Origin: Candidatus Enterousia sp. | GTDB taxonomy: Bacteria > Pseudomonadota > Alphaproteobacteria > Rs-D84 | DNA: 57,828 nucleotides | NCBI GenBank assembly: GCA_045114635.1 | Contig: JBGUKY010000004.1 | Coordinates: 1 to 57,828, forward strand | Reading direction: 5' to 3' | Part shown: positions 13,294-38,478 of the stretch, in pieces | Position numbering within the stretch: position 1 is the stretch's first letter | Layout: each line of letters opens with the position of its first letter | Notes under the pieces: generated by a model | What the model was told of the DNA's origin: nothing | Seen by the model: the letters and a program-made list of their open reading frames with translations, nothing else | Database searches by the model: none | Program-made: the position numbers and the translations under genes

Positions 13294-14331
13294 ATGAAAC
13301 TTATGATAACCGAAGAAAAAAAAGAATTTTACGAGAAGGCTACTGATAATATACTTAAACAAGTGGCTTCTTTAAATTTAACGCCAGACCAACAAAATCA
13401 AGCAATTAAATTGGTGCTTCTTTTGCGTGAATCTTTTAAAGACGAGAAAATAAAAAAAACAACAGCGTTAGCAAATTCTCCGGATAATGTTTGGGATCTA
13501 GGATATGATTCTGCCGGCTTTTGTCGTGTGTCAAGTGTTCTTTTTATGTATGCGATGGAAAACACAGGAGATTGGCAATTGATGTCTATGCCAAAAGGTA
13601 TGTTGGATTATAAGCATCATTGGTTGGTGCATAAAAAAACTGGTAAAGCACTTGATTTAACATACGATCAATTTGCGTTCAAAAACCAAAAAATTCCTTA
13701 TGACAAAGGTGAAAAGACCGCGCCAAATATATCTTTTGATCAAAATGATGATGAACATGTGTTTGCTAAACTTTTGGGGTTTGATTTGACGCAATTGGTT
13801 AACAGTAAGAGAACTGCTAAACCTGCAAAATCTTATTCACAAAGATATGAAGAATTTACAAAAGCAACCGTTAAATTAGCTGAAAAAATTCATGCTGTAA
13901 ACAAAGACAAAATATCTGTACAATATACTTTGCCACAAATAACACTTGCTTTGCGTAATATATATAAGAATCCAGTTTTTCACGAAGCCTTTGTTTCCAG
14001 TAAAATGTCAGAAAACAAATGGTCTTCTGGATTTTGTGCTATGGCTAGTGTTTTAATTTATGAATTATATGGTGGAGATAAAGTTTGGAATATGATGGCT
14101 GTGCATTATAATGATTGGGTTGATAAAAACGGAAACCCAATAAGCTCAGTTGTATTTTTACAAGATAAAACCACAGGCGTTAATTTTGGAACAACCGGAG
14201 AACATTTTTATCCTTTGACTATACCTTATGAAATTGGTAAACCATTAGATGTGGCTCGTTTACATACGCCCAACAAAGAAAAACTTAAACGAATTTTGTT
14301 GCATGAACTAAGCTTAAATACAAAAAATTAA
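13294..14331 (+). CDS. Protein with two tandem transglutaminase/papain-like domains
   Basis: Repeat 1 SAGFC..HHWL..DLTYDQF..IPY..G; repeat 2 SSGFC..VVFL..GTTGEHF..IPY..G; real start may be ATG 13303. Confidence 0.6.
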   Translation: MKLMITEEKKEFYEKATDNILKQVASLNLTPDQQNQAIKLVLLLRESFKDEKIKKTTALANSPDNVWDLGYDSAGFCRVSSVLFMYAMENTGDWQLMSMPKGMLDYKHHWLVHKKTGKALDLTYDQFAFKNQKIPYDKGEKTAPNISFDQNDDEHVFAKLLGFDLTQLVNSKRTAKPAKSYSQRYEEFTKATVKLAEKIHAVNKDKISVQYTLPQITLALRNIYKNPVFHEAFVSSKMSENKWSSGFCAMASVLIYELYGGDKVWNMMAVHYNDWVDKNGNPISSVVFLQDKTTGVNFGTTGEHFYPLTIPYEIGKPLDVARLHTPNKEKLKRILLHELSLNTKN

Positions 14332-28638: not shown

Positions 28639-29367
28639 TTATCTAGTACATTGGGAGTTTTGATTAATAACATCCATTAAAAAACCGAAAGCCGCTTGAT
28701 TGCCAACTTTCCAACCTTCAAGTACCTTGATAGTTTCTGCGATTTTATCCAATTCTTCATCAGATAAATCTTTCAATTTTCGATTTATGTTTATACCTGT
28801 TTTTGTATACAAATGACGTTGATATCTTATCGGATCATTATTATCACAAAATGGCGCATATTTATGAATCGCATTATATATTGATAAATTGGCATACGCA
28901 TCTGTTCGAAGCAAAGCTTTTAAAGCAAGCATACCCTGCTCTTCTGATGGAAAAACAGCAAAACCACCAGCATCACCACAAGCACCCATTTTGCATGCAA
29001 AAGAACCTGTTCTTATTGCACCAGGGTTCATATTTCTCCATGTGCGCGATCCGTAATTAAGAATAAACCCGGTTCCGTCTGGACGTGTATATCTCACATA
29101 TATATCTTTGGAAGAATCTATTTCAAAAACAATTGGTCTTACATCGTATCCTAATTCGTGATACAGATTGAATCTTTGTTCTAATTTGACCAATGTTTGA
29201 TATGCGGGCTTATAATCAGATGGCAATGGTTCAACAGAACGTTCGTTCCATACTTTAGTATCCATAGGAAATGGCATCGGTGTATCTTTTTGTGCATCAC
29301 GAATACCCTTTACGAAGAAAGGCATTGTAAGCACCAGCGAAAACATCAAAACTTTCTTTTTATTCAT
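28639..29367 (-). CDS. Exported protein with RNxNPG lysozyme-like/virion-type domain
   Basis: N-terminal hydrophobic segment; WRNMNPGAIR..GFAVFPS.EQG..AL..LL..YAP..N...Y. Confidence 0.6.
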   Translation of the reverse strand: MNKKKVLMFSLVLTMPFFVKGIRDAQKDTPMPFPMDTKVWNERSVEPLPSDYKPAYQTLVKLEQRFNLYHELGYDVRPIVFEIDSSKDIYVRYTRPDGTGFILNYGSRTWRNMNPGAIRTGSFACKMGACGDAGGFAVFPSEEQGMLALKALLRTDAYANLSIYNAIHKYAPFCDNNDPIRYQRHLYTKTGININRKLKDLSDEELDKIAETIKVLEGWKVGNQAAFGFLMDVINQNSQCTR

Positions 29368-29489
29368 TGTTTTTTTTACCAAAGCGGGAGCATTTTATAA
29401 GGCGTTTTCGCTTTTGTCAAACTAAAAACAAAAAACGATAAATTCACACTTGCATTTAAAAAACTGTTTATATATAATAACACCCATCC

Positions 29490-29578
29490 GGAGCGTTGGC
29501 AGAGTGGTAATGCAGCGGATTGCTAATCCGTGACCGTAGTAATGCGGTCCATAGGTTCGAGTCCTATACGCTCCGCCA
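29490..29578 (+). tRNA. tRNA-Ser(GCT), integration target
   Basis: ggagcgt..gcgga-tt-GCT-aa-tccgt, long variable arm, ggttcgagtcc, acgctcc-gcca. Confidence 0.95.
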
Positions 29579-29587
29579 CTAATTAAA
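29563..29587 (+). repeat. att core, tRNA-side copy
   Basis: cctatacgctccgccactaattaaa. Confidence 0.92.
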
Positions 29588-29713
29588 ATCCCAGTTTTTG
29601 GGATTTTTTTATTTGTTATTTTAACTTATAAAATAATCAATTTTTCCCAGAAATCAGGCACTTTTATACATATTAACAAAACGATGAATTAATGTAAAAA
29701 TGAGGCTCCGACA

Positions 29714-29748
29714 TGTGCCACTTTCTGTGCCACTTTGTGTGCCACCAC
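29714..29748 (+). repeat. Integrase arm-type sites (left), 12-bp period
   Basis: tgtgccactttc/tgtgccactttg/tgtgccaccac. Confidence 0.7.
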
Positions 29749-29760
29749 AATAAAAATGGC

Positions 29761-31398
29761 GTGATAAAAAAATTGACAATTAGAAATGGCATCTATTATT
29801 ATAGAAGCAAGCAAATCAGCGGAACAACAGTAAAGGATATAAGAATATCCTTGCATACAACAGATTTCTTTGAAGCGGTTAATAGAATGAAGATAGAAGA
29901 TAATATTGTTACATTGCAAAAACAACTAGCAAAAATAGAAACAAAGTTGCTGGATTCTTCAACTGAGCCCACAGAAACCGTTCAATTATTAGAAACTAAA
30001 CAAGCTATTTTAAAAGAAATTGCTGATTTAAAAACTGAGCGAGAATGGAAAAGCATATCCGCAAGTATAAAAAAGCATTCTTTAAACGTATTAAAACCGC
30101 ACCTACCGACAGAAATACCTGCTTCTGGTATGTCAGTGTTAAAACCTAGCAATATTAATATTGTTCAAAACTACAACAACACAACTGCCGCAACTAATAT
30201 TGTCTATCCTACTATTCGTGCAATGTTAGACGAATTTGAAGAAGCTAGAGGCTATGTCGCAACAAACGAAAATATTAAAGAATATAAAAAGAATCACAAA
30301 TATAAAATACATAAATTATATGAGAGATTGTTTGGTTTAGGGGTTTTTGATTTAGAACAACCAATAAGTATTTTAAATGATGTAACATTACTAAACAAGT
30401 GGTTTAACAAAATTGCCGCAACACCTCGTTCTAAGAATTCACCAGAAACTATAGGTATCGCAATGTACGCCAAATATTTATTATATACTAGAGTGTTCTT
30501 AGAATATTGTAATACCAGCAATCAAAGTTATATAACCGCTAAAACATTATCTTTAATCCAGATTCCAGAAGTAAAATCCAGTGACACAATTCCTCATACT
30601 CCATATAGCGAGCAATCTTTAAAAACTATGTTTAATCCCGCAAAATCCAAAGAATTTTTCATTGAATATTCTTATCTTTTTTGGGCTATTGTTATATCGT
30701 TATTTAGTGGTTCAAGAAAAAATGCGGCAACTACTTTAATGTATAAGGATATACGCAAAATAAGGGGTATTGACTCAATATCTTTTATTGAAGAAAAGAA
30801 TACAAACAAATCTTATAAAAATGACGCAACTTCAAGAAAAATTCCTATGGCACCTCAACTTATTAAACTTGGTTTTATAGAATGGGTAAATAATAGGAAG
30901 AAGTTTTTAAATGCTAAGAATACCGATTATATATTTCCTGAATGTACAATAAGATTTTCTGAAACACCAGAGAACAATGGTAAATATGCGGAAGCATGCC
31001 TTAGACCTTTATTTGATCATTTTATAAAGATAGGTATAAAGCATTCAGATTGGGAAAAAGTCAAAGAAACTAGAGAAAAATTTGATTTTCACTCTTTTCG
31101 TAAAAATGCGAACCAAATACTTCAAAAACATAAAGTTACTACAGCAAATATAAATCTAATTATCGGTTGGGATTCAGAAAATATGAGCGATAGAGAATAT
31201 AATCACGACCCATTAAAAGATGAAACAGTAGAATACTTGAAAGATATTGTTGATAACAATTTAAAATACGATTTCCTAGATGAAGAATTCGCTCAATGGA
31301 AGGATATAATGAAAGACACCTATAAATACACGGGTGAGCGAAAGAAAACTGGAAAAAAGCAAACAATTATATCTTCAACAGTTCTACCGCTTCTCTAA
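29761..31398 (+). CDS. Tyrosine integrase
   Basis: N-terminal RNGIYYYR..RISL.T arm-binding domain; catalytic SGSR, HSFR, IGW..Y; GTG 29761 preferred over 29713. Confidence 0.88.
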   Translation: MIKKLTIRNGIYYYRSKQISGTTVKDIRISLHTTDFFEAVNRMKIEDNIVTLQKQLAKIETKLLDSSTEPTETVQLLETKQAILKEIADLKTEREWKSISASIKKHSLNVLKPHLPTEIPASGMSVLKPSNINIVQNYNNTTAATNIVYPTIRAMLDEFEEARGYVATNENIKEYKKNHKYKIHKLYERLFGLGVFDLEQPISILNDVTLLNKWFNKIAATPRSKNSPETIGIAMYAKYLLYTRVFLEYCNTSNQSYITAKTLSLIQIPEVKSSDTIPHTPYSEQSLKTMFNPAKSKEFFIEYSYLFWAIVISLFSGSRKNAATTLMYKDIRKIRGIDSISFIEEKNTNKSYKNDATSRKIPMAPQLIKLGFIEWVNNRKKFLNAKNTDYIFPECTIRFSETPENNGKYAEACLRPLFDHFIKIGIKHSDWEKVKETREKFDFHSFRKNANQILQKHKVTTANINLIIGWDSENMSDREYNHDPLKDETVEYLKDIVDNNLKYDFLDEEFAQWKDIMKDTYKYTGERKKTGKKQTIISSTVLPLL

Positions 31399-31954
31399 CT
31401 CTTTCTTTGGATTGCAGATAATATTTTAATGTTGTGCTTGGCGAAGCGTGACAAACAGCTTGTTGAACAACGCAAACATCAACACCTTGTCGCAACAAAG
31501 ATGAAATCATATAATGGCGACCATAATGACTGCCGCATTTTAATCCAAAAACTTTGAATATTTTAATAAAAGTTCTTGAAACTGAAGGACGAGTAAGAGG
31601 TTTGTTAACGCCCTTCTGACTTTGAAACAAATATGTATCTGGTTTAATAACATTATTCTTTTGTTTTAAATATTTCAAATACTCTGAAAATTCTTTTGAT
31701 ACTTGAGAATTAACACTGTAAGCACAAGGTCTATTGCCTTTGTTTTTATCTTTGGATAAATATATTACAGGTCTAACATTTTCTTGGTCGTCATATACAT
31801 CTGAATATGTTAACGCATAAAAGTTAATAGAACGCATTCCCATACCAAAACTACAAAAAAACATCATTCGTATCATTTCGTGGTGTTTTAGACCTTGGAT
31901 ATATGTGAATATTTGTTTTAATTTAGTGTTGCTTATTTCTTCTTGATTAACCAT
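31367..31954 (-). CDS. Small tyrosine recombinase (catalytic domain only; resolvase/invertase-like)
   Basis: GMR, K, HYGRH, H.S..TT..Y; AAGGAG RBS; TTGGCA-N17-TATAAT promoter. Confidence 0.85.
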   Translation of the reverse strand: MVNQEEISNTKLKQIFTYIQGLKHHEMIRMMFFCSFGMGMRSINFYALTYSDVYDDQENVRPVIYLSKDKNKGNRPCAYSVNSQVSKEFSEYLKYLKQKNNVIKPDTYLFQSQKGVNKPLTRPSVSRTFIKIFKVFGLKCGSHYGRHYMISSLLRQGVDVCVVQQAVCHASPSTTLKYYLQSKERVREAVELLKI

Positions 31955-32198
31955 TTAATAACTCCTTAAAAATGTTAAAAAAAATTCATATTACTATTAT
32001 AAGTTAACATTCATTTGGTGCCAAGCTAATTAGCTGTTTAAATTTTCTTTATTTACTGCGGGTTTTAGAAAAAAAAGACAAATATATGTATTTTTTAACA
32101 TTTTGTCGAATTCATTTTTTCAAATACTGATAAATAGTTTTGAACCAGATAGATTTATATCTGGCAATTAACAACTATCTAACCATAGGAGAATTATT

Positions 32199-33308
32199 AT
32201 GATAGATAGTATTAAATTAGCATTGCCAACAAGTGCGGTTACATTTACTAATTTTGTTGGATATAGAAATGTATCGGAAGACACATTAAAAGAACTGATA
32301 ACTAATAACGGTTATAAAGAAGGATGTGAGTATGTAAATTATGAGAAAATATATATTCATAATAATGGTTATATGCCAGCCATAGGTGTATGTGCGTATA
32401 AAAATCAAGCACCTGTTTTGTGGTTGCGTGTGTCGCTACCAAAGCTACTATATCAAACCAATATGTACGAAATCTGCGAAAATGATTTTGATAAAGTGGT
32501 TCAACAGATTTGTTACGCTGCGACAAATCTTGGAATAGATATTCCAAAATCGGCAATATATAATGCACGAATTTGGGAAGTTCATATTGGTAAGAATATT
32601 GATTTGAATTCTACTGGCTTGAGTGTTGCGACAGTTCTATCAGCTTTAAACAAATTAGCATTTGATAAAAGATTGTCGCAGAGCAAAGTTTATTATCTTA
32701 ATCTGCTAGATAATTGCGACAATATGCAGATAGAATATAAAGAAGGTGAGAAATGGTCTGCTGGTTGCAAGTCTTATGAATATTGCTTTTACAATAAAAC
32801 TCAGGAAGTATTAAAAGATAATTGGGGTCAAGGTTTTATGAAGCGACATCCTGAATTAAATAATGTAATTAGATTAGAATATCGCCTATATAATTCAGAG
32901 TCTGTAAAGCGTGGTTTTGAAAAAGTAGGTATAGATAAAAACATTTGCTTTAAAGATTTCTTTACAGACGCAAATTTCCAGTTACTTAATTTATTTATCT
33001 GGAATAAAGTAATTCGTCCGCAGATATGCTGGCTCGGTTTTATTAATAATGACCCCATGGTTTTATTGAATAAGATGAACGCACTAAATATTAAGCCTGT
33101 AAATGCATTAAAGTTACTTGGTATGTTTTATCTAAATTTAACAGAAAACTCTTGTAGCACGATTAAAATGCTATTTCCGCCACGATCAAACATTGTTGTA
33201 AGATTAAAGCAACAGATTGAAGCGATTAATGGTTTGGAAACAGATAGTCTAGTTGATACCTTCAAGTTCATAGAGATGGAACTTGTGCGAAATCAACCAA
33301 TGATATAA
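32199..33308 (+). CDS. Phage/plasmid replication initiator, gene II/X-like
   Basis: MIDSIKL, SLPKLL..N, EVHIGKN, FYNK..E, IRLEYRL motif order. Confidence 0.65.
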   Translation: MIDSIKLALPTSAVTFTNFVGYRNVSEDTLKELITNNGYKEGCEYVNYEKIYIHNNGYMPAIGVCAYKNQAPVLWLRVSLPKLLYQTNMYEICENDFDKVVQQICYAATNLGIDIPKSAIYNARIWEVHIGKNIDLNSTGLSVATVLSALNKLAFDKRLSQSKVYYLNLLDNCDNMQIEYKEGEKWSAGCKSYEYCFYNKTQEVLKDNWGQGFMKRHPELNNVIRLEYRLYNSESVKRGFEKVGIDKNICFKDFFTDANFQLLNLFIWNKVIRPQICWLGFINNDPMVLLNKMNALNIKPVNALKLLGMFYLNLTENSCSTIKMLFPPRSNIVVRLKQQIEAINGLETDSLVDTFKFIEMELVRNQPMI

Positions 33309-33500
33309 CTCTAAACATACTATTAATATAAATAATATATAAAGATATTAGTGACATTTTATATTATATATTATTATTTATTAATTAAATAACTATATAT
33401 AACCACTTGATTAAATAAAAAATCAGGTGGTTATTTTTTTCATTTCTTTTTAATTTGCTGATAAATAGTTACAAAGAAAATAAAAATAAAGGTAAAGACA

Positions 33501-34271
33501 ATGGAAATTCAAATTGATAAAAACGAAAATCAAATATCATTGAAAGTCATGATTTCGCTTGCGACAGCTTACGGTAAAGCTATGGAAGAAGAATTAAATA
33601 TTGATAATTCTATCCAAGAACCAGATTATATAAGTGATATTGACGATAATATTGTAAAATCAACAAATACATTCTTAAATAACTTAATTAGCCTTAATGA
33701 TTTATTAGTAATTTCAAATAAAGATAGACGACAAGAAATAGATCAATTTATATCAATATTAGTAAACGGGATATTTTCAACTGTATGTCCAATGAATATA
33801 TATTGTTTAGATTTGCGTTCAGATAGCATATTTAATTATAATTCTTTTATAAGCCAAAGAATTACGGATATAGACGATTGTTTTGAAGTGCTTACTAATG
33901 GAGCGATAGAAGATAATCCAGAAGTTCAAAATTACATAATTGTTAATGAGTGTATTGATTTCTTTATGTATGATTGCGACAAGTTTATTCAATCTATAAA
34001 ACAATTATTATCACGGGATAATTATCATATAATTCTACTTTGTTCAGAGCCTGAATTACTAACCGAAGAACTTTTAGTAACTATGAGTCATTATTGTGTT
34101 TTTTGGCTTGGTTCAACACGGGCAAGCAAAGCCATCTTCCACGGTAAAAATGTTGCGTGTAACCCACAAGAACCAGGATATTTTTTATATTCATTTGATA
34201 AAGGAACTTCATATTCCACAGAAAGCATAGAATACAATATATATCCTGATGACCAAGAATTAGATATATAA
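33501..34271 (+). CDS. Hypothetical protein, possibly degenerate FtsK-like ATPase
   Basis: LLVI..(no GKS), IYCLD, YIIVNE (Walker B-like), HIILLCSEP. Confidence 0.45.
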   Translation: MEIQIDKNENQISLKVMISLATAYGKAMEEELNIDNSIQEPDYISDIDDNIVKSTNTFLNNLISLNDLLVISNKDRRQEIDQFISILVNGIFSTVCPMNIYCLDLRSDSIFNYNSFISQRITDIDDCFEVLTNGAIEDNPEVQNYIIVNECIDFFMYDCDKFIQSIKQLLSRDNYHIILLCSEPELLTEELLVTMSHYCVFWLGSTRASKAIFHGKNVACNPQEPGYFLYSFDKGTSYSTESIEYNIYPDDQELDI

Positions 34272-34437
34272 GCCTGAAGTTTAGGTCTGGTTTATTCTTT
34301 TTATCCATTCCATTAAGTCTTTTACTAACATTACCAGACCTAATTAAATTTAATTTTCACATATTTTAATCTTACATAAATATAGATATACATTGTGAAT
34401 CGGAAAGGAAATAACTCTCGTGTAAGGGGTATTATAT

Positions 34438-35274
34438 CTATTGTTCATTCCTACATTCTGGAACGGAATCATCACATATCAGATATTCATAATCACCTTC
34501 TACACCATTAAGTGTTTCGTGAATTAAAATATGAAGTCCCTTAGACGCTCCCGCAGATACTTTTGGAAACGGAGCACTTGGGGTCATATCTCGTAAAACT
34601 GCATTTGCGGAATAATTAGTTTCGCCTACACGAACAAATAATCTATGTATAGTAGGATTTGCTGGTTGCTGATGCATATACAATATATCGTGATATGTTT
34701 CATCAGATATATGTAATTTTCGCCCGCACTGTGATTGAAGCCACATACCCTGTGGAGCATATGGGTGAGCAGATGGACATGGAGTGATTCCCTGTGGAGC
34801 GGTTTCATTAAATGTAAGATTTCCACCAGGACAATAGTGGTCTGCTGGACATATTGTGCATTCGTCAATGTTTGCTGGCAAATAATAACCCTGATTACAA
34901 TTATGAATATTTGGGGTAAAAGTTGCTGTTATGTTTGAAATATTGTTTGCTACACGTAGAAAATCAGTTGTACAACCGTTTCTTATATTGTCTGTGACTT
35001 GTATTTTGAATTTATTACCTTGATCAATATCTTCATTGAAGGTGAAGTTTCCGCCATTACAATCATACACGTCTGGACATACCACACAACCGTCATTATT
35101 AGCTGGCACATAATATCCAGAATTACATTGATATTGGTTTATGGCAAATGTAGCTTGTAAATAAGTATGTGGCGAGAAATTGTTTGAACAACCATTTGGA
35201 ACGTTGGATATAAGCAACTGGTCTGCAAATGCAGATATTGGTATTATTAAAAATGATAACCATTTGTGTTTCAT
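34438..35274 (-). CDS. Exported Cys-rich repeat surface protein
   Basis: Signal peptide MKHKWLSFL..AFA; two C..GYY.PAN.D.C..CP...C.GG repeats; TAATG coupling to upstream gene. Confidence 0.8.
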   Translation of the reverse strand: MKHKWLSFLIIPISAFADQLLISNVPNGCSNNFSPHTYLQATFAINQYQCNSGYYVPANNDGCVVCPDVYDCNGGNFTFNEDIDQGNKFKIQVTDNIRNGCTTDFLRVANNISNITATFTPNIHNCNQGYYLPANIDECTICPADHYCPGGNLTFNETAPQGITPCPSAHPYAPQGMWLQSQCGRKLHISDETYHDILYMHQQPANPTIHRLFVRVGETNYSANAVLRDMTPSAPFPKVSAGASKGLHILIHETLNGVEGDYEYLICDDSVPECRNEQ

Positions 35275-36086
35275 TATTGTAATACTGGACCTGCTATAAA
35301 TTGACCACTGCCTTGGTTGTAGAAAAATTGACCTGTTATTTTGTCGAACATACAAGGGGTGCCGTTATAATCAAGGACAGGAATAAAATCACGAACAAGG
35401 GTGTTATTATCGAAGATTTGAAGATAATATGCTTTGCCTTTAAAGCCTCTTATGTCGCCTTCATAAAAACCTGTTGCATTTGCTTTAAAAAAATAAATAT
35501 TGCCAAAATCAGTCGTATTATATTCATTGACTGCTTGAACTACTGGGCTACCATTTAAATATATTTTTCTTTCAGTTGTTCTTAATTCTAAGTTTACTTG
35601 CTGGTTTGTTCCTATTTTTATAACAGAATTGTTGGCAGGAGGATTATAATTGTTATTTGTTTCTGTAGCAGAACCAAACCTTAAACCAATTCTACCATCT
35701 TCGTATATAAAGAAAAATCGCATATTTCCTTCGCCTGTTGGGGTATTAACAAATCTATATCCAAAAATACTATCGGCAGTGTTAGTGTTTGTTCTGTTAA
35801 TGCCCATTTTTGCATTTATAGCATTTGTGTATTTGTACCCAGTGTCAATCCATTGTGTCCCTGTGGATTCTAAATACTCAATTGGTGTGAATGTCGATAT
35901 TTTCCATCCTGTAAAAGTATAACCATATTTTGTTGGTGGGGTGGACGGTAATATTAAATCACTATCAATTACACAGGTTGAGTTTTGATATGTTGACCCA
36001 TCTTCATTTAACCAGTGCAGGTTTATTGTATCTGCATATGTGAAGCTACTAAATAGTAGTGATAATAATACAAGAAGCCGTTTCAT
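35274..36086 (-). CDS. Exported protein with InlB B-repeat-like stalk and lectin/tail-fibre-like domain
   Basis: Signal peptide; PTKYGYTFTGW; YLESTGTQWIDTG...VRDFIPV..G.PCMFDKITGQFFYN.G.G.F; AAGGAGG RBS. Confidence 0.75.
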   Translation of the reverse strand: MKRLLVLLSLLFSSFTYADTINLHWLNEDGSTYQNSTCVIDSDLILPSTPPTKYGYTFTGWKISTFTPIEYLESTGTQWIDTGYKYTNAINAKMGINRTNTNTADSIFGYRFVNTPTGEGNMRFFFIYEDGRIGLRFGSATETNNNYNPPANNSVIKIGTNQQVNLELRTTERKIYLNGSPVVQAVNEYNTTDFGNIYFFKANATGFYEGDIRGFKGKAYYLQIFDNNTLVRDFIPVLDYNGTPCMFDKITGQFFYNQGSGQFIAGPVLQ

Positions 36087-36104
36087 ATTATCCCTCCTTG
36101 GTTT

Positions 36105-36305
36105 TGGACAACAAGAAACCGCCATTTTTGAAAAAGGCGGTTGGAGGTTCGAAACAATTTACCAGAATTGTGTGCTTATTCCAATACAGCAAGTGTATCT
36201 CTATTAAGCAGCCCTCCAACCGAACTGTTGGAGTTTATCGTCTGTTCTTGCAGACGCTGGTAAACAGGTTTCGACACCCCATTAGGAAAACTCTTCCTAA
36301 CATTG
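36105..36305 (-). promoter_or_regulatory. Switchable structured leader with terminator (C4-antisense-like)
   Basis: Mutually exclusive complementary blocks and terminator 36116-36142 upstream of the cargo RBS. Confidence 0.6.
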
Positions 36306-36391
36306 AAACTATAATACCAAATGTGTGCGTTCACAAGTGGAAAATATATTGATACAACAAAAAATAACACCCGTTTTCACAGGTGCTAATG

Positions 36392-36445
36392 TTATGCTGA
36401 TTGTTTAATCCAATCTTCCAAGAGCATTTTATATACTTCTGCCAT
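36392..36445 (-). CDS. 17-aa small ORF MAEVYKMLLEDWIKQSA
   Basis: AAGGAG RBS 7 nt upstream; downstream hairpin plus T tract. Confidence 0.45.
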   Translation of the reverse strand: MAEVYKMLLEDWIKQSA

Positions 36446-36562
36446 CAGGATTCTCCTTTAGTTTAATGTTAATCTATGATTATTTATCTGAATGTTAAAC
36501 ATACAAAAAATTATCTTTGAAAAATGTAGTTCACTAATATTGAAAATTATGTTATGCTGGAA

Positions 36563-36610
36563 TGTGTATATAAATGTGCCAAAAAGTGTGACACTTTGTG
36601 AGACACTTTT
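36563..36610 (+). repeat. Integrase arm-type sites (right), 12-bp period
   Basis: tgtgtatataaa/tgtgccaaaaag/tgtgacactttg/tgagacactttt. Confidence 0.65.
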
Positions 36611-36680
36611 GAAAAGTTTTGGAATAATTCAATTACAGAACAGGCAGATTTATGGGAATTTGGGATATTTAATATCGGAG

Positions 36681-36705
36681 CCTATACGCTCCGCCACTAA
36701 TTAAA
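36681..36705 (+). repeat. att core, distal copy
   Basis: Identical 25-mer to 29563-29587, followed by a terminator at 36707-36729 (probably the original tRNA terminator). Confidence 0.92.
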
Positions 36706-36738
36706 TAAAACCGCCATTGTGGCGGTTTTATTTGTTTG

Positions 36739-38478
36739 TTACACTTGTTTTTCTTCAGAAGTATGTCCTGGTTGAAATATTTCCACATCACGTGTCATGG
36801 ACAAGAATTTTTTGGCACGCAAAGGTATCAGTTCTTCAACCGGTATTTCTTTTAATTCAATTAACGCATCTGCGACAGATTTAGCCAATAATTCCATTGT
36901 CGTATCCCAGTCTTTGTGTGCACCACCAGCAGGTTCGTCTATAATTTTATCAATTACATTCAATGATGCCATGTCACGCGCAGTCAATTTTAATGCTGTT
37001 GCGGCATTTGCCTTGAACTTGTTGTCTTTCCACAAGATGCTTGCGCAAGATTCAGGAGCAATAACAGAATAAATTGCGTTTTCAAGCATCATTATTCTGT
37101 CGCCTGTACCAATTGCAATTGCGCCGCCAGAACCGCCTTCACCAACATTAACGGCCACATATGGCGTTTTTACACTTAAACCTGTTGCTATTGTTGCAGC
37201 TACCGCTTGCGATTGACCGCGTTCTTCGGCAGCACCACCAGCGAAAGCACCAGCAGTATCAAACAAAGACACAATTGGCAAACTGAATTTTTCAGCCAAT
37301 TTCATTAAACGTTGCGCCTTTCGATATCCTTCTGGATTAGACATACCAAATCTGTGTTGTTGACGTGTTTCAATTGTACGGCCCTTTTCCTGACCAATAA
37401 TTACAGCCGGTATTCCGTACCAATAACCAATTCCACCACACATAGCGGCATCTTCACCAAAACATCTGTCGCCTGCAAGGTAAGTCCACTTATCAACAAT
37501 ACCCCTTACATAATCCAAGAAATGAGGTCTGTTTTCATTTCTTGCCAATAAAACCCTGTCATATTCAGGTGTTTTACCCACATCACGAGATTTCTTTGGT
37601 GTATCAAATTTTGGTGTCTTGATATCGATAACTTTTGGTTCGGCTGGTTGTTTTGTTAAGACTGTTAAAATACGTTCCAATGTTTCTTTTAAATCAGAAC
37701 GATTTACAACAATATCGACCATACCGTGATCATATAAATAATCTGCTGTTTGGAAATTTGATGGTAATTTTTCGTGAATATTTTGTTCGATAACACGACG
37801 ACCAGCAAATCCAATACGCGCACCCTTTTCCGCAATATGTATATCACCCAACATAGCGAACGAAGCAGTAACGCCACCAAATGTAGGATCTGTCAAAACA
37901 ACGATATAAGGCAATTTGTTTTCATGTAACTTGTTCACAGCTACTGTTGTACGTGCCATCTGCATCAAAGATAAAATGTTTTCTTGCATACGCGCGCCAC
38001 CACTGCAAGTTACCATAATGAAAGGATGTTTTAATTCTATGGCGTGTTCTATGCTAGCGATAATTGCATCCCCAGCGGCACGTCCCATAGATCCCATCAT
38101 AAAATCACCGTTCATAACACATACTGTCGAATCTATACCACCTATTTTACCGTCTGCGGTTGATATAGAATCATTTGTGCCAGCATCTTCGCGTGCTTCT
38201 TTTAATCTTTCTTTGTATGGCATTCTGTCCACAAAGTTCAACGGATCATCACTCACAACAGGCAAATCAAATTTTTGCCAATCGATGTCATCGAATAACA
38301 AATCAAATCTTTGTTTTGGATTCATAATAAAAGCACGACCACAACGTGGACAAACGTAATGATTGTTTTTATAATCTTTATAGAAAACTAAACGACCACA
38401 TGCTTCGCATTTTATCCACATCAATCTGCGAACGCGTTCATATTTATCACGGTTATGGTTTTTAATTCCACTCGACAT
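36739..38478 (-). CDS. accD: Fused acetyl-CoA carboxylase carboxyltransferase beta+alpha (AccD-AccA)
   Basis: W.KC..C..C..C zinc finger, SGGARMQE, GFAG.RVI, then RP..LDY, PEGYRKA.R, EGGSGGA, SVI.PE. Confidence 0.92.
   Translation of the reverse strand: MSSGIKNHNRDKYERVRRLMWIKCEACGRLVFYKDYKNNHYVCPRCGRAFIMNPKQRFDLLFDDIDWQKFDLPVVSDDPLNFVDRMPYKERLKEAREDAGTNDSISTADGKIGGIDSTVCVMNGDFMMGSMGRAAGDAIIASIEHAIELKHPFIMVTCSGGARMQENILSLMQMARTTVAVNKLHENKLPYIVVLTDPTFGGVTASFAMLGDIHIAEKGARIGFAGRRVIEQNIHEKLPSNFQTADYLYDHGMVDIVVNRSDLKETLERILTVLTKQPAEPKVIDIKTPKFDTPKKSRDVGKTPEYDRVLLARNENRPHFLDYVRGIVDKWTYLAGDRCFGEDAAMCGGIGYWYGIPAVIIGQEKGRTIETRQQHRFGMSNPEGYRKAQRLMKLAEKFSLPIVSLFDTAGAFAGGAAEERGQSQAVAATIATGLSVKTPYVAVNVGEGGSGGAIAIGTGDRIMMLENAIYSVIAPESCASILWKDNKFKANAATALKLTARDMASLNVIDKIIDEPAGGAHKDWDTTMELLAKSVADALIELKEIPVEELIPLRAKKFLSMTRDVEIFQPGHTSEEKQV

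Follow-up and report, generated by a model that had tools for sequence, protein, structure and literature searches.

RS1 of CTXphi is an integrated element that lacks virion genes and carries a Rep of the Rep_trans/Phage_CRI superfamily, and elements of the CTXphi/RS1 type integrate at dif by means of the host XerCD. CTXphi is listed under Rep_trans in the part of PMC5714925 used here. In the sections of PMC5704250 on which we draw, streptococcal IMEs combine a tyrosine integrase with a relaxase of the RCR-initiator type (MobT/Rep_trans and others) and an FtsK-like TcpA. Actinomycete AICEs of the pSAM2 type are built from int, rep and an FtsK-like tra and were confined to Actinomycetales in that study (PMC3218068, in the portion cited here).

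We analysed a window of DNA (the whole stretch, 57,828 nucleotides) from Candidatus Enterousia sp., a gut bacterium whose genome (G000) measures 0.87 Mb at 89.7% completeness. An earlier note on this DNA had described a compact element integrated in tRNA-Ser between 25-bp att repeats, and the locus was resolved into the following features.

29490..29578, plus strand: tRNA-Ser(GCT), the integration target (ARAGORN; Rfam tRNA, 60.3 bits)
29563..29587, no strand given: attL core, 25 bp, equal to attR (repeat search, 100% identity)
29585..29607, plus strand: terminator-like hairpin of the element, immediately 3' of the tRNA, replacing the native one
29713..29745, plus strand: three copies of TGTGCCAC at 12-bp spacing ahead of int, possible arm-type or operator sites
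29761..31398, plus strand: IntL, long tyrosine integrase (545 aa from GTG 29761; 561 aa from ATG 29713)
31367..31954, minus strand: YRs, 195-aa tyrosine recombinase, catalytic domain only, Xer-like
31955..32198, no strand given: divergent YRs/Rep control region, 27% GC
32199..33308, plus strand: Rep, 369 aa, initiator of the Rep_trans/Phage_CRI superfamily
33399..33434, plus strand: terminator-like hairpin 3' of rep
33501..34271, plus strand: ORF4, 256 aa, FtsK/HerA-fold pseudo-ATPase
34438..35274, minus strand: Cargo1, 278 aa, predicted secreted, Cys-rich repeat (ORF 34438-35355)
35274..36086, minus strand: Cargo2, 270 aa, predicted secreted, weak Listeria-Bacteroides repeat (ORF 35274-36125)
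36574..36606, plus strand: right-end 12-bp-period repeats TGTGCCAA, TGTGACAC and GTGAGACAC (repeat search)
36681..36705, no strand given: attR core, the same exact 25-bp direct repeat
36702..36734, plus strand: native terminator hairpin common to the tRNA and accD-accA, marking the right flank (counterparts at the G002 and G005 empty sites)

The 25-bp repeat starts inside tRNA-Ser(GCT), and attL contains the final 16 nt of that gene. The proposed integration gained direct support from two congeners (G002 and G005), in which the empty attB was found: here the tRNA abuts the terminator hairpin, with the accD-accA stop next to it, and the 7,118 bp are therefore an insertion with established borders. 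Spacing between the tRNA and accD-accA in a further genome, G105, is the same (tblastn coordinates). A survey of congener tRNA-Ser(GCT) loci, proposed in the earlier note to look for the same backbone with swapped cargo, returned no such case, since IntL, YRs, Rep and ORF4 were absent within 1.5 kb of all 29 loci; the sampled genomes likewise showed no second copy of the element at the site. Together, the exact repeats, the empty sites and the 0/29 occupied loci favour insertion and suggest that it was recent. The 12-bp-period repeats previously noticed at both ends were also recovered, with exact copies of TGTGCCAC in the window limited to three (29714, 29726 and 29738) and one-mismatch copies lying in phase at 36575 and 36587. 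The control region between YRs and Rep contains an inverted repeat (31969-31992 / 32081-32104), and its TAACATTT-type blocks are kept in two related islands (L027 and L058), making it a candidate operator or double-strand origin; the structure of this region is not significant because its fold z-score was only -1.65.

The catalytic set of tyrosine recombinases (R, K, HxxR, H/W, Y) is complete in both IntL and YRs, whose genes converge with a 32-nt overlap of their 3' ends, in agreement with the earlier description of a long integrase facing a catalytic-only recombinase. IntL scored under the cut-off against Pfam Phage_integrase (22.1 bits), and its R319, K350/353, H444, R447, W470 and Y503 are conserved across 20 aligned relatives. 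A tRNA gene lies just upstream at 17/19 loci of IntL relatives, and the family is present in 64/256 congeners and 75/328 genomes of the order; judged from these alignments and contexts, IntL is a member of a lineage-specific, tRNA-targeting integrase family. YRs matched Phage_integrase at 58.8 bits (profile positions 5-169 of 172) and phrog_216 (E 6.5e-29), with R41, K70/72, H143, R146, H169 and Y178/179 invariant in three homologues and with XerC-like, XerA and XerH as the closest solved proteins.

Rep matched Phage_CRI (PF05144) over profile positions 1-217 of 232 at 16.6 bits (E 0.0066), missing the gathering cut-off of 21.7 bits. The same family was matched by 14/68 Rep relatives at E <= 0.01 (best 3.9e-8), and Rep_trans by 1/68 family members. 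Y198, K200, R225 and E227 are present in every member (68/68), and both an acidic residue at 203 and the N' aspartate, D3, in 67/68. The resulting YxKxx[D/E] and RxE patterns fit motif III (YxKxxE, which includes the catalytic tyrosine) and motif IV (W/LxRxE), which are defined alongside the N' Asp in the part of PMC5714925 used here; the motif IV residues and the N' aspartate, which are the metal ligands of the Rep_trans/Phage_CRI scheme, are present in Rep. Clear counterparts of motifs I (RxD) and II (T/SxY/ExG) were not found in the 68-member comparison, and two conserved blocks, S79-x-P-K and H129-x-x-K-N133, may stand in for them.

The Rep model, of moderate quality (pLDDT 67), places Y198 inside a beta-strand (193-199) and most resembled the PDB entries 4cwe, 4cwc and 4cij (Z 8.8, 8.3 and 8.0), with TBPs next at 5.6, in keeping with the TBP-like horseshoe fold of the superfamily; its C-terminal third is an extra, helical and poorly modelled stretch of ~90 residues (pLDDT below 50). 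A fold search of a viral library ranked unnamed viral proteins of 364-382 aa at the top (E 1.5e-9 to 2.7e-6), followed by Inoviridae G2P (E 1.9e-5), and Rep relatives were found neither among 2.9 million viral contigs nor, by sequence match, among PHROGs. At E <= 1e-3, profile searches collected 954 cluster representatives, the majority of which fall below Pfam thresholds, and Rep occurs in 13/256 congeners. Motifs, fold and Phage_CRI matches thus bear out the gene II/X-like Rep of the earlier note at the superfamily level, the structural comparison suggested there having returned Rep_trans initiators as the top PDB folds. Within that superfamily Rep is a branch separate from known annotation, nearer to Phage_CRI.

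ORF4 was modelled by AF2 with a pLDDT of 66-92 per 10-residue block over residues 62-200 (mean about 80). Its top match in VIA was the E. coli FtsK motor (2ius_A; Z 13.3, rmsd 3.5, 181 aa, 17% identity), with TcpA (12.4), HerA and EssC tied within 1 Z at 12.2-12.4 and Rho at 12.1. Foldseek returned EccC (3.6e-5) and FtsK (2.4e-4) in an EccC/FtsK range extending to 1e-3, and hhalign aligned ORF4 with the host FtsK (E 1.1e-4, probability 56%), so that the gene earlier called degenerate FtsK-like merits that description by both fold and sequence match. Walker A (Gx4GK) is absent from 8/8 ORF4 homologues, which therefore points to an old conserved state and not to recent decay. The Walker B position reads NE for DE in ORF4 and NE or NS across homologues, and neither a PF01580 match (Pfam) nor an evident membrane segment was found; by sequence, ORF4 is incapable of ATP hydrolysis. 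It accompanies part of the Rep family only.

The two remaining genes retain the signal peptides attributed to them earlier, as judged by eye (N-termini MKHKWLSFLIIPISAFA followed by DQ in Cargo1 and MKRLLVLLSLLFSSFTYA followed by DT in Cargo2). ATG 35274 is the most likely start of Cargo1 and ATG 36086, preceded by AAGGAGG, that of Cargo2; the genes therefore share a TAATG stop/start overlap, through which Cargo2 appears to be translationally coupled to Cargo1. Cargo2 scored 21.2 bits against Flg_new, under the Pfam cut-off, and the Cys-rich repeat of Cargo1 recurs in host ORFs of 3974 aa and 2734 aa. An element in G176 has counterparts 69% identical to Cargo1 and 41% identical to Cargo2. In line with the earlier note, searches of the six proteins (Pfam, PHROGs, NCBIfam, PADLOC) revealed neither a capsid nor a terminase, nor any Zot, canonical relaxase, T4SS or excisionase family, and on the element we recognised no regulator or oriT and found no small membrane ORFs. 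PHROG matches at E < 0.001 were to integrase families for YRs only; the others were weak (E > 0.009) and to families of unknown function. The host genome, at 89.7% completeness, has no match to Zot/pI (PF05707) and encodes VirB4 and VirD4. Among 31 genomes of the order, G000 together with 30 relatives, 28 have VirB4, and given this conservation the host T4SS may be a protein-secretion system and not a conjugation system.

The six genes together do not make up a conserved backbone: a Rep-centred core swaps both integrases and cargo. From the loci compared, the conserved backbone is the YRs-Rep-ORF4 core, or Rep alone, recurring with four kinds of integrase. L027, at a tRNA-Met site, encodes YRs, Rep and ORF4 at 45, 60 and 33% identity beside restriction-modification cargo and a different integrase, and in it ~145 bp separate YRs from the distal att repeat. 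L058 has YRs at 45% and ORF4 at 32% identity and a Rep from another clade; the backbone DNA of L027 and L058 is nonetheless about 88-90% identical. A Rep-ORF4 pair is found in L045 and L046, adjoining a P4-like integrase and defence genes in L045, and L044 and L050 are Rep-bearing islands between tRNA-derived repeats. Cargo is exchanged throughout, from surface proteins in the window element to restriction or abortive-infection genes elsewhere, and serine recombinases as well as restriction-modification cargo occur in relatives. Distant Rep relatives lie in similar tRNA-side islands of Saccharibacteria. By gene content and sequence, these loci constitute a modular and little-known island family.

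On balance, we regard the locus as an integrative, rolling-circle-replicating and probably helper-mobilised element, and we infer how it is excised, replicated and transferred, and what ORF4 and YRs do, as follows. The 12-bp arm-type repeats on either side of the core would guide IntL in excising a circle. Rep, as a tyrosine nickase of the Rep_trans/Phage_CRI type, would nick an origin, probably within the conserved YRs-Rep intergenic region, and so start rolling-circle replication; the nick could also feed single-stranded DNA to a conjugation channel in trans, as with MobT/Rep_trans of Firmicute ICEs and IMEs, the host VirB4 and VirD4 being a possible source of that channel. ORF4, a catalytically dead FtsK-like protein, might act as an adaptor or regulator and not as a pump, and the Xer-like YRs as a multimer resolver or second site-specific recombinase. 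The cargo would be a coupled secreted pair built from repeats that occur in giant host surface proteins. Several results weigh against this reading: no excisionase, regulator, oriT or canonical relaxase was recognised, Rep scores under the Pfam cut-off and its model is of moderate quality, ORF4 looks inactive and accompanies part of the Rep family only, the host T4SS may serve protein secretion, and Rep is confined to 13/256 congeners, with no second copy of the element at its site.

It is possible, if on the unlikely side, that the locus grew by accretion, a Rep-centred element (YRs-Rep-ORF4 and cargo) having inserted beside an IntL islet of separate origin at the tRNA or recombined with it; the mobile unit today might then be only the whole island of IntL, or the core with YRs as its integrase. 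The L027 and L058 cores lack IntL, the IntL type is five times commoner than Rep among congeners (64 vs 13 of 256), YRs of L027 has an integrase-like position near the distal repeat, IntL and YRs converge with overlap, and the L027 and L058 backbones share about 88-90% DNA identity with differing Rep clades, all of which suit such a history. However, repeat search of the window element gave no att-like repeat in its interior, the borders of the G176 element are not definable, and at each end arm-type repeats accompany the outer core, so that the IntL sites enclose the entire 7.1 kb. Alternatively, the island may be stranded, an integrated rolling-circle plasmid or element now immobile and retained for its surface-protein cargo; ORF4 is a pseudo-enzyme, no excisionase was found in the element and a single occurrence is seen at the tRNA-Ser(GCT) site among the genomes sampled. 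We consider this unlikely, as the two copies of the 25-bp repeat match exactly, the six ORFs are all intact with catalytic residues kept, and the loss of Walker A, common to all the ORF4 homologues, is old.

If the island instead derives from a filamentous phage (inovirus), as a satellite or remnant comparable in principle to RS1, it would have kept the gene-II-type Rep and would need a helper virion for packaging; ORF4 would then be a morphogenesis ATPase in decay, and the secreted proteins would bind receptors. Inovirus pI belongs to the FtsK/HerA superfamily, and the FtsK/HerA-type fold of ORF4, the rank of Phage_CRI/G2P as the best Pfam family of Rep and the unnamed viral proteins and Inoviridae G2P among its viral-library fold matches speak for this origin. 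It is nevertheless quite improbable: Zot/pI is unmatched in both the element and the host genome (89.7% complete), small coat proteins have neither space nor a reading frame in the element, whose genes are spread over the two strands, giant host surface ORFs contain matches to the cargo repeats, Rep has no relative in the viral contigs and no PHROG match, and relatives carry restriction-modification cargo and serine recombinases. Least credible is an autonomous AICE-like element transferring double-stranded DNA through its own FtsK-like translocase. The order att-int-rep-FtsK-like-att in a tRNA gene does mirror AICEs as described in the consulted part of PMC3218068, yet ORF4, at 256 aa, has no Walker A, has NE for the Walker B DE, and lacks an evident membrane segment and a PF01580 match, making this very improbable.

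Returning to a helper-mobilised element, we offer as a speculation, which we think doubtful, that DNA processing and docking are combined in one self-contained module of YRs, Rep and the dead FtsK paralogue, which would couple the Rep-bound single strand to the conserved host VirB/VirD4 system or to FtsK; MobT-TcpA of Tn916-type elements and the recombinase-like relaxase with TcpA of pCW3 would be its analogues. If true, such a module would carry 5-10-kb islands between ultra-small-genome bacteria, even across phyla given the Rep relatives in equivalent Saccharibacteria islands, and would provide minimal mobilisation machinery to organisms believed to be very limited in gene exchange. Independently of this, the 954 representatives define a sizeable unannotated Rep family, a marker for small islands beside tRNA genes both in gut bacteria with reduced genomes and in Saccharibacteria. 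The cargo of such islands comprises genes for restriction-modification, abortive infection or surface proteins, and where genomes measure ~0.9 Mb the islands may be a major path of gene flux. A conserved Walker-less FtsK paralogue beside a rolling-circle initiator is a candidate new transfer or replication adaptor.

The earlier note had held that the gene set fits no canonical PICI, inovirus or IME, and this stands for the first two. A PICI-type satellite was rejected, as Rep is a tyrosine nickase and not a primase-helicase and the PHROG matches at E < 0.001 are integrase families for YRs only, where a PICI would encode packaging redirection; for an inovirus or its satellite, pI/Zot was found neither in the element nor in G000 (89.7% complete), and no small membrane ORFs for coat proteins were found. 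CTXphi/RS1 elements differ further, as the island here brings an integrase of its own and uses a tRNA gene as its site, in a host where inovirus genes were not found. For IMEs the exclusion does not hold: the element has its own integrase, att sites and site-specific insertion, and its genes fit the IME/AICE kind described in the parts of the literature used here. An IME would also excise as a circle and pass through the mating pore of a helper by means of its own oriT or relaxase; VirB4 and VirD4 are present in the host. At the level of the initiator, Rep resembles the pT181/pSTK1-type Rep_trans proteins (4cwe, 4cwc, 4cij) and Phage_CRI/G2P in fold (Z 8.0-8.8) and shares with Rep_trans initiators the N' Asp, motif III YxKxxE, motif IV xRxE and a tyrosine in a beta-strand (PMC5714925, in part). 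It differs from these proteins in its low identity (10-12%), in motifs I and II, which have no clear counterparts, in its extra C-terminal third, and in residing on an integrated island and not on a plasmid or phage.

Compared with streptococcal IMEs as described in the same sections of PMC5704250, the host is a non-Firmicute with a 0.87-Mb genome whose AddA best fits the alphaproteobacterial model, Rep, being closer to Phage_CRI, forms an unannotated branch of its own, neither Walker A and B nor a membrane anchor is present in the FtsK-like protein, a 195-aa recombinase is additional, and the helper on hand is a VirB4/VirD4 system and not of the TcpA type. AICEs, in the cited portion of PMC3218068, have Tra proteins that are active FtsK/SpoIIIE pumps, in contrast to the inactive-looking ORF4, and Rep families (RepSA, RepAM) different from that found here. 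Like streptococcal IMEs, however, the element is small, with a tyrosine integrase and a site at the 3' end of a tRNA or housekeeping gene, and pairs a Rep_trans-related protein, possibly serving both replication and transfer, with an adjacent FtsK-related protein amid modules and cargo that are often exchanged (PMC5704250, same sections). By analogy, it is closer to streptococcal IMEs and actinomycete AICEs than the earlier note allowed.

We found that the element is an insertion in tRNA-Ser(GCT), and the following features of the window define the site:

29490-29578, tRNA-Ser(GCT), the target gene
29563-29587 and 36681-36705, exact 25-bp direct repeat (repeat search of the window)
29585-29607, terminator-like hairpin for the tRNA, borne by the element (hairpin search)

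The six ORFs agreed with the list in the earlier note, the two recombinase genes converging and overlapping by 32 nt. An empty attachment site, which that note had proposed to look for, was present in two relatives of the same genus (G002 and G005), where the terminator hairpin comes immediately after the tRNA, along with the stop codon of the fused accD-accA gene. This junction is exactly the window sequence with 29588-36705 deleted. Relative G105 showed an equal tRNA to accD-accA spacing (tblastn coordinates), and accD-accA lay ≤1.5 kb from tRNA-Ser(GCT) in 19 of 29 congener loci. Matches to the long tyrosine integrase (IntL), the small recombinase (YRs), Rep and ORF4 were found at 0/29 of these loci, and a Cargo1-like repeat protein at one. 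G+C content was 22-32% within the element versus 35-44% in the flanks. Because the repeats are identical and the element is absent from the sampled relatives, the data point to a recent gain. Exact copies of TGTGCCAC number three in the whole 57.8-kb window, at 29714, 29726 and 29738, and two further copies with one mismatch each, at 36575 and 36587, keep the 12-bp phase. In the circularised element these 12-bp arrays would flank the core at distances of ~125 bp and ~75 bp, like arm-type sites.

The surroundings of this tRNA were also inspected. In some congeners a partial or second tRNA-Ser(GCT) copy lies 1-1.4 kb from the full gene (G016:C15:12693-12753 and 14086-14175; G063:C8:64244-65318), and these copies may be traces of other insertions at the same tRNA. 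Just upstream of the tRNA in the window (28639-29382, minus strand) is a gene for a 247-aa protein with an N-terminal hydrophobic segment and a domain matching phage tape-measure and endolysin families (phrog_2276, E 4.4e-11; phrog_873, E 1.4e-7). Since the protein is kept beside the tRNA in G213, G002 and G001 at 47-60% identity, we regard it as a host protein, probably cell-wall hydrolase-like. At 36739-38478 (minus strand), accD and accA are fused in one 579-aa ORF in the genus (matches at 74-92% identity, mostly full-length); in most other families of the order searched they are two adjacent matches.

IntL matched Pfam Phage_integrase at a sub-threshold 22.1 bits. Among 328 genomes of the order, 75 encode its family (ORFs mostly of ~390-650 aa), and among 256 congeners 64 do so, often with multiple copies. 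In 17 of 19 fetched loci the integrase gene follows a tRNA gene (Ser-TGA, Gln, Gly, Lys, Val, Thr, Pro, Tyr or Leu) at a distance of 70-150 bp; the remaining two loci are cut by contig ends. Residues R319, K350/353, H444-x-x-R447, W470 and Y503 are conserved (n = 20 aligned sequences). Given this tRNA-side placement and the conserved catalytic residues of the family, IntL is expected to be the enzyme that made the insertion.

YRs (195 aa) matched the Pfam catalytic-domain profile at 58.8 bits over positions 5-169 of 172, and its length leaves no space for a core-binding domain. Its two homologues, in an island at a tRNA-Met gene (L027) and in the element of relative G176 (L058), are of equal length and 45% identical, and keep R41, K70/72, H143-x-x-R146, H169 and Y178/179; the nearest solved proteins are Xer-type recombinases. 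We considered whether a 28-nt repeat marks the borders of the G176 element, but it proved to be part of a ~135-bp duplicate (75% identity) derived from a lipoprotein-gene leader. The flanks of the G176 element map to two different contigs of the source genome (G000), and with the repeat explained as a leader duplicate, integration of that element by YRs alone is unsupported.

Close homologues of Rep were rare, with only five in a 5.8-billion-protein index (54-94% identity). A profile search of 1.84 billion representatives recovered 954 proteins at E ≤ 1e-3, 688 at ≤ 1e-10 and 166 at ≤ 1e-30, mostly of 355-395 aa. Across an alignment of 68 sequences, D3 is kept in 67 and Y198, K200, R225 and E227 in all 68, while position 203 is acidic in 67. 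These positions correspond to the N' aspartate (D3), motif III (YxKxxE; Y198-K200-203) and motif IV (xRxE; R225-E227) of Rep_trans initiators, motifs that, according to a review (PMC5714925), are found also in Phage_CRI proteins. Phage_CRI was matched by 14 of the 68 sequences (best 3.9e-8) and Rep_trans by one; the window Rep itself scored 16.6 bits against Phage_CRI, below the 21.7 cut-off. The AlphaFold model, which is of moderate quality (pLDDT 67), places Y198 in a beta-strand. Against the PDB, Foldseek had Rep_trans initiators in all of its first six rows (E from 1.6e-3), and VIA-align placed 4cwe (Z 8.8), 4cwc (8.3) and 4cij (8.0) ahead of TATA-box-binding proteins at 5.6. The invariant motifs III and IV, the Phage_CRI matches and the Rep_trans folds thus bear out, at superfamily level, the Rep assignment made from the sequence alone. 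The sole match of the Rep profile in a PDB sequence search, CFAP161A (E 9.8e-4 over 70 residues), was judged spurious, as the fold gives it no support. In a viral library the best Rep rows were viral proteins without names (364-382 aa; E 1.5e-9 to 2.7e-6), with an Inoviridae G2P next (E 1.9e-5); no Rep relatives were found among viral contigs, and a full-text literature search returned no description of this Rep or island family.

ORF4 homologues were found only as the gene immediately following Rep, at L027, L058 and two further Rep loci (L045 and L046), together with four database proteins that came from an alignment search; a single-sequence word-index search recovered the query alone. The ORF4 model, of moderate quality overall, is confident at residues 62-200. 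Among AAA+ proteins, Foldseek returned EccC (3.6e-5), FtsK motor domains (2.4e-4 to 1.1e-3), EssC-D3 and TcpA. In a fold search independent of Foldseek the best match was the E. coli FtsK motor (Z 13.3, rmsd 3.5, 181 residues, 17% identity), with TcpA, HerA and EssC (Z 12.2-12.4) and Rho (12.1) inside the tool's tie margin. By profile comparison, residues 140-231 aligned with residues 528-624 of host FtsK, a region spanning Walker B to the C-terminal motifs (E 1.1e-4, probability 56%), and for ORF4 a language-model atlas listed an FtsK_SpoIIIE cluster at 0.93. The ORF4 profile had no match below E 0.1 in a PDB sequence search, and the only PADLOC match, HNH_I-A (E 0.004), was sub-threshold and disregarded. 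Gx4GK is absent from 8/8 ORF4 homologues and the Walker B DE is replaced by NE or NS, so ORF4 is an FtsK-fold protein whose ATPase motifs are long gone, in keeping with its earlier description as degenerate and FtsK-like.

Among 328 genomes of the order, the Rep profile matched 17, one of them G000, and among 256 congeners it matched 13. A tRNA gene lay within the fetched stretch at 14 of 16 Rep loci examined with flanks. At L027, L044 and L050 a 20-25-nt copy of the tRNA 3' region beyond Rep bounds islands of ~9.5-10.2 kb.

Gene content of four Rep-bearing islands
L027, tRNA-Met: 312-aa recombinase, type IIG restriction-modification gene, 303-aa gene, ORF4, Rep, YRs
L045, tRNA-Met: P4-like integrase, Rep, ORF4-like, methyltransferase and ResIII protein, AAA_21 and RloB
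L044, tRNA-Pro: IntL-like integrase, small serine resolvase, SHOCT proteins, Rep
L050, tRNA-Pro: large serine recombinase, Rep, type III restriction-modification system

YRs and the 303/309-aa gene share 88-90% DNA identity between L027 and L058, yet the Rep genes of these two loci belong to different clades. In a collection of species-representative genomes only two Rep relatives were found, both from Candidatus Saccharibacteria (L025 and L026; 23-24% identity). Their islands have the layout of L050, with a large serine recombinase gene abutting a tRNA gene at the island edge; this gene directly follows Rep in L026, with a type III restriction system intervening in L025. A small SpoVG-like gene sits just upstream of Rep in both (L025 9739-10068 and L026 9520-9828; Pfam SpoVG E 6.7e-9 and 2.4e-10). 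An 80-aa ORF holds the same position in G019 (L024 2577-2819), its likeness being judged by eye. Since island contents around Rep vary, the conserved unit is Rep, often with ORF4 and YRs, rather than the whole set of six genes, and the integrase differs across L027, L045, L044 and L050. Integrases as well as cargo can thus be exchanged.

In the cargo pair we placed the Cargo2 start at ATG 36086, preceded by AAGGAGG, and the Cargo1 start at ATG 35274, which gives a TAATG stop/start overlap. Both proteins carry candidate signal peptides, classical-looking by eye, and are putatively adhesin-like. The Cys-rich repeat of Cargo1 recurs in host ORFs of 3974 aa (G000:C10) and 2734 aa (G000:C18). A sub-threshold Listeria-Bacteroides repeat in Cargo2 also matches the 2734-aa ORF, where the N-terminal repeat of Cargo2 recurs. 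These giant repeat-bearing ORFs sit in a 0.87-Mb genome. The coupled pair is also present in the G176 element (69% identity for Cargo1, 41% for Cargo2), on the opposite side of the core and in the opposite orientation relative to the window element.

Several short sequences accompany these genes. A 17-codon ORF (MAEVYKMLLEDWIKQSA; 36392-36445, minus strand), with AAGGAG in front of it and a terminator-like hairpin behind (36365-36388, minus strand), sits between the right-end repeats and the cargo operon and may be a small regulator or leader. The Cargo2 upstream UTR (36209-36302) contains a hairpin, CTCCAACC...GGTTGGAG, and has a 72%-identical counterpart elsewhere in the genome, on a different contig (G000:C10:33507-33601); it may be a leader common to surface-protein genes. 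In G176 two genes have a ~135-nt leader in front of them, the Cargo2 homologue and a gene for a 386-aa lipoprotein (L058 6741-6874 and 13170-13305), and the same lipoprotein gene in G000 is also preceded by one (G000:C13:3012-3146); no Rfam family matched this leader at E ≤ 0.01. A short repeat between Cargo1 and YRs in G176 (L058 8780-8922) recurs in G000 at C12:75-216, C20:165-225 and C17:37156-37216, near two contig ends, and may be a dispersed, assembly-breaking repeat.

The data show that the element is inserted and modular and to which families its enzymes belong; the remaining life cycle we infer as follows. IntL would excise the element at the outer cores with the arm repeats. Rep would then nick an origin, for which the AT-rich, conserved spacer between YRs and Rep is the most plausible place, and rolling-circle replication would follow. 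This spacer has an inverted repeat and TAACATTT-type blocks common to L027 and L058; folded as single-stranded DNA, it gave a z-score of -1.65, which is not significant. Transfer would be helper-dependent. The host encodes FtsK, VirB4 (805-aa ORF) and VirD4 (770-aa ORF) (G000:C21:83736-84311 and G000:C8:68221-69747), and Zot had no match in its 0.87-Mb assembly, an absence that is provisional at 89.7% completeness. Of 31 genomes of the order (G000 plus 30 relatives), 28 had VirB4, among them 22/22 of high quality, indicating that this reduced-genome lineage has a type IV secretion system as part of its core and that a channel is always at hand for the element, although this channel may not conjugate DNA.

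Streptococcal IMEs, as described in PMC5704250, combine a tyrosine integrase that acts at genes for tRNAs or ribosomal proteins with a relaxase akin to rolling-circle initiators (such as MobT/Rep_trans) and, in many cases, TcpA, a distant FtsK relative; their modules are frequently lost and replaced, and MobT of Tn916 and ICEBs1 has a role in both transfer and replication. AICEs are outlined in PMC3218068 as att-tra(FtsK-like)-rep-int-att within tRNA genes. The element is like both in its integrase, Rep, FtsK-like protein and tRNA site, and these published gene sets argue against the former view that it fits no canonical class. By analogy, it would resemble IMEs and AICEs in how it works. It differs from them in host lineage, in having its own Rep branch, in its dead FtsK-like protein and in its extra mini-recombinase. 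Together, our results show a real integrative element, inserted recently and belonging to a modular, largely undescribed Rep-centred family of the IME/AICE kind.
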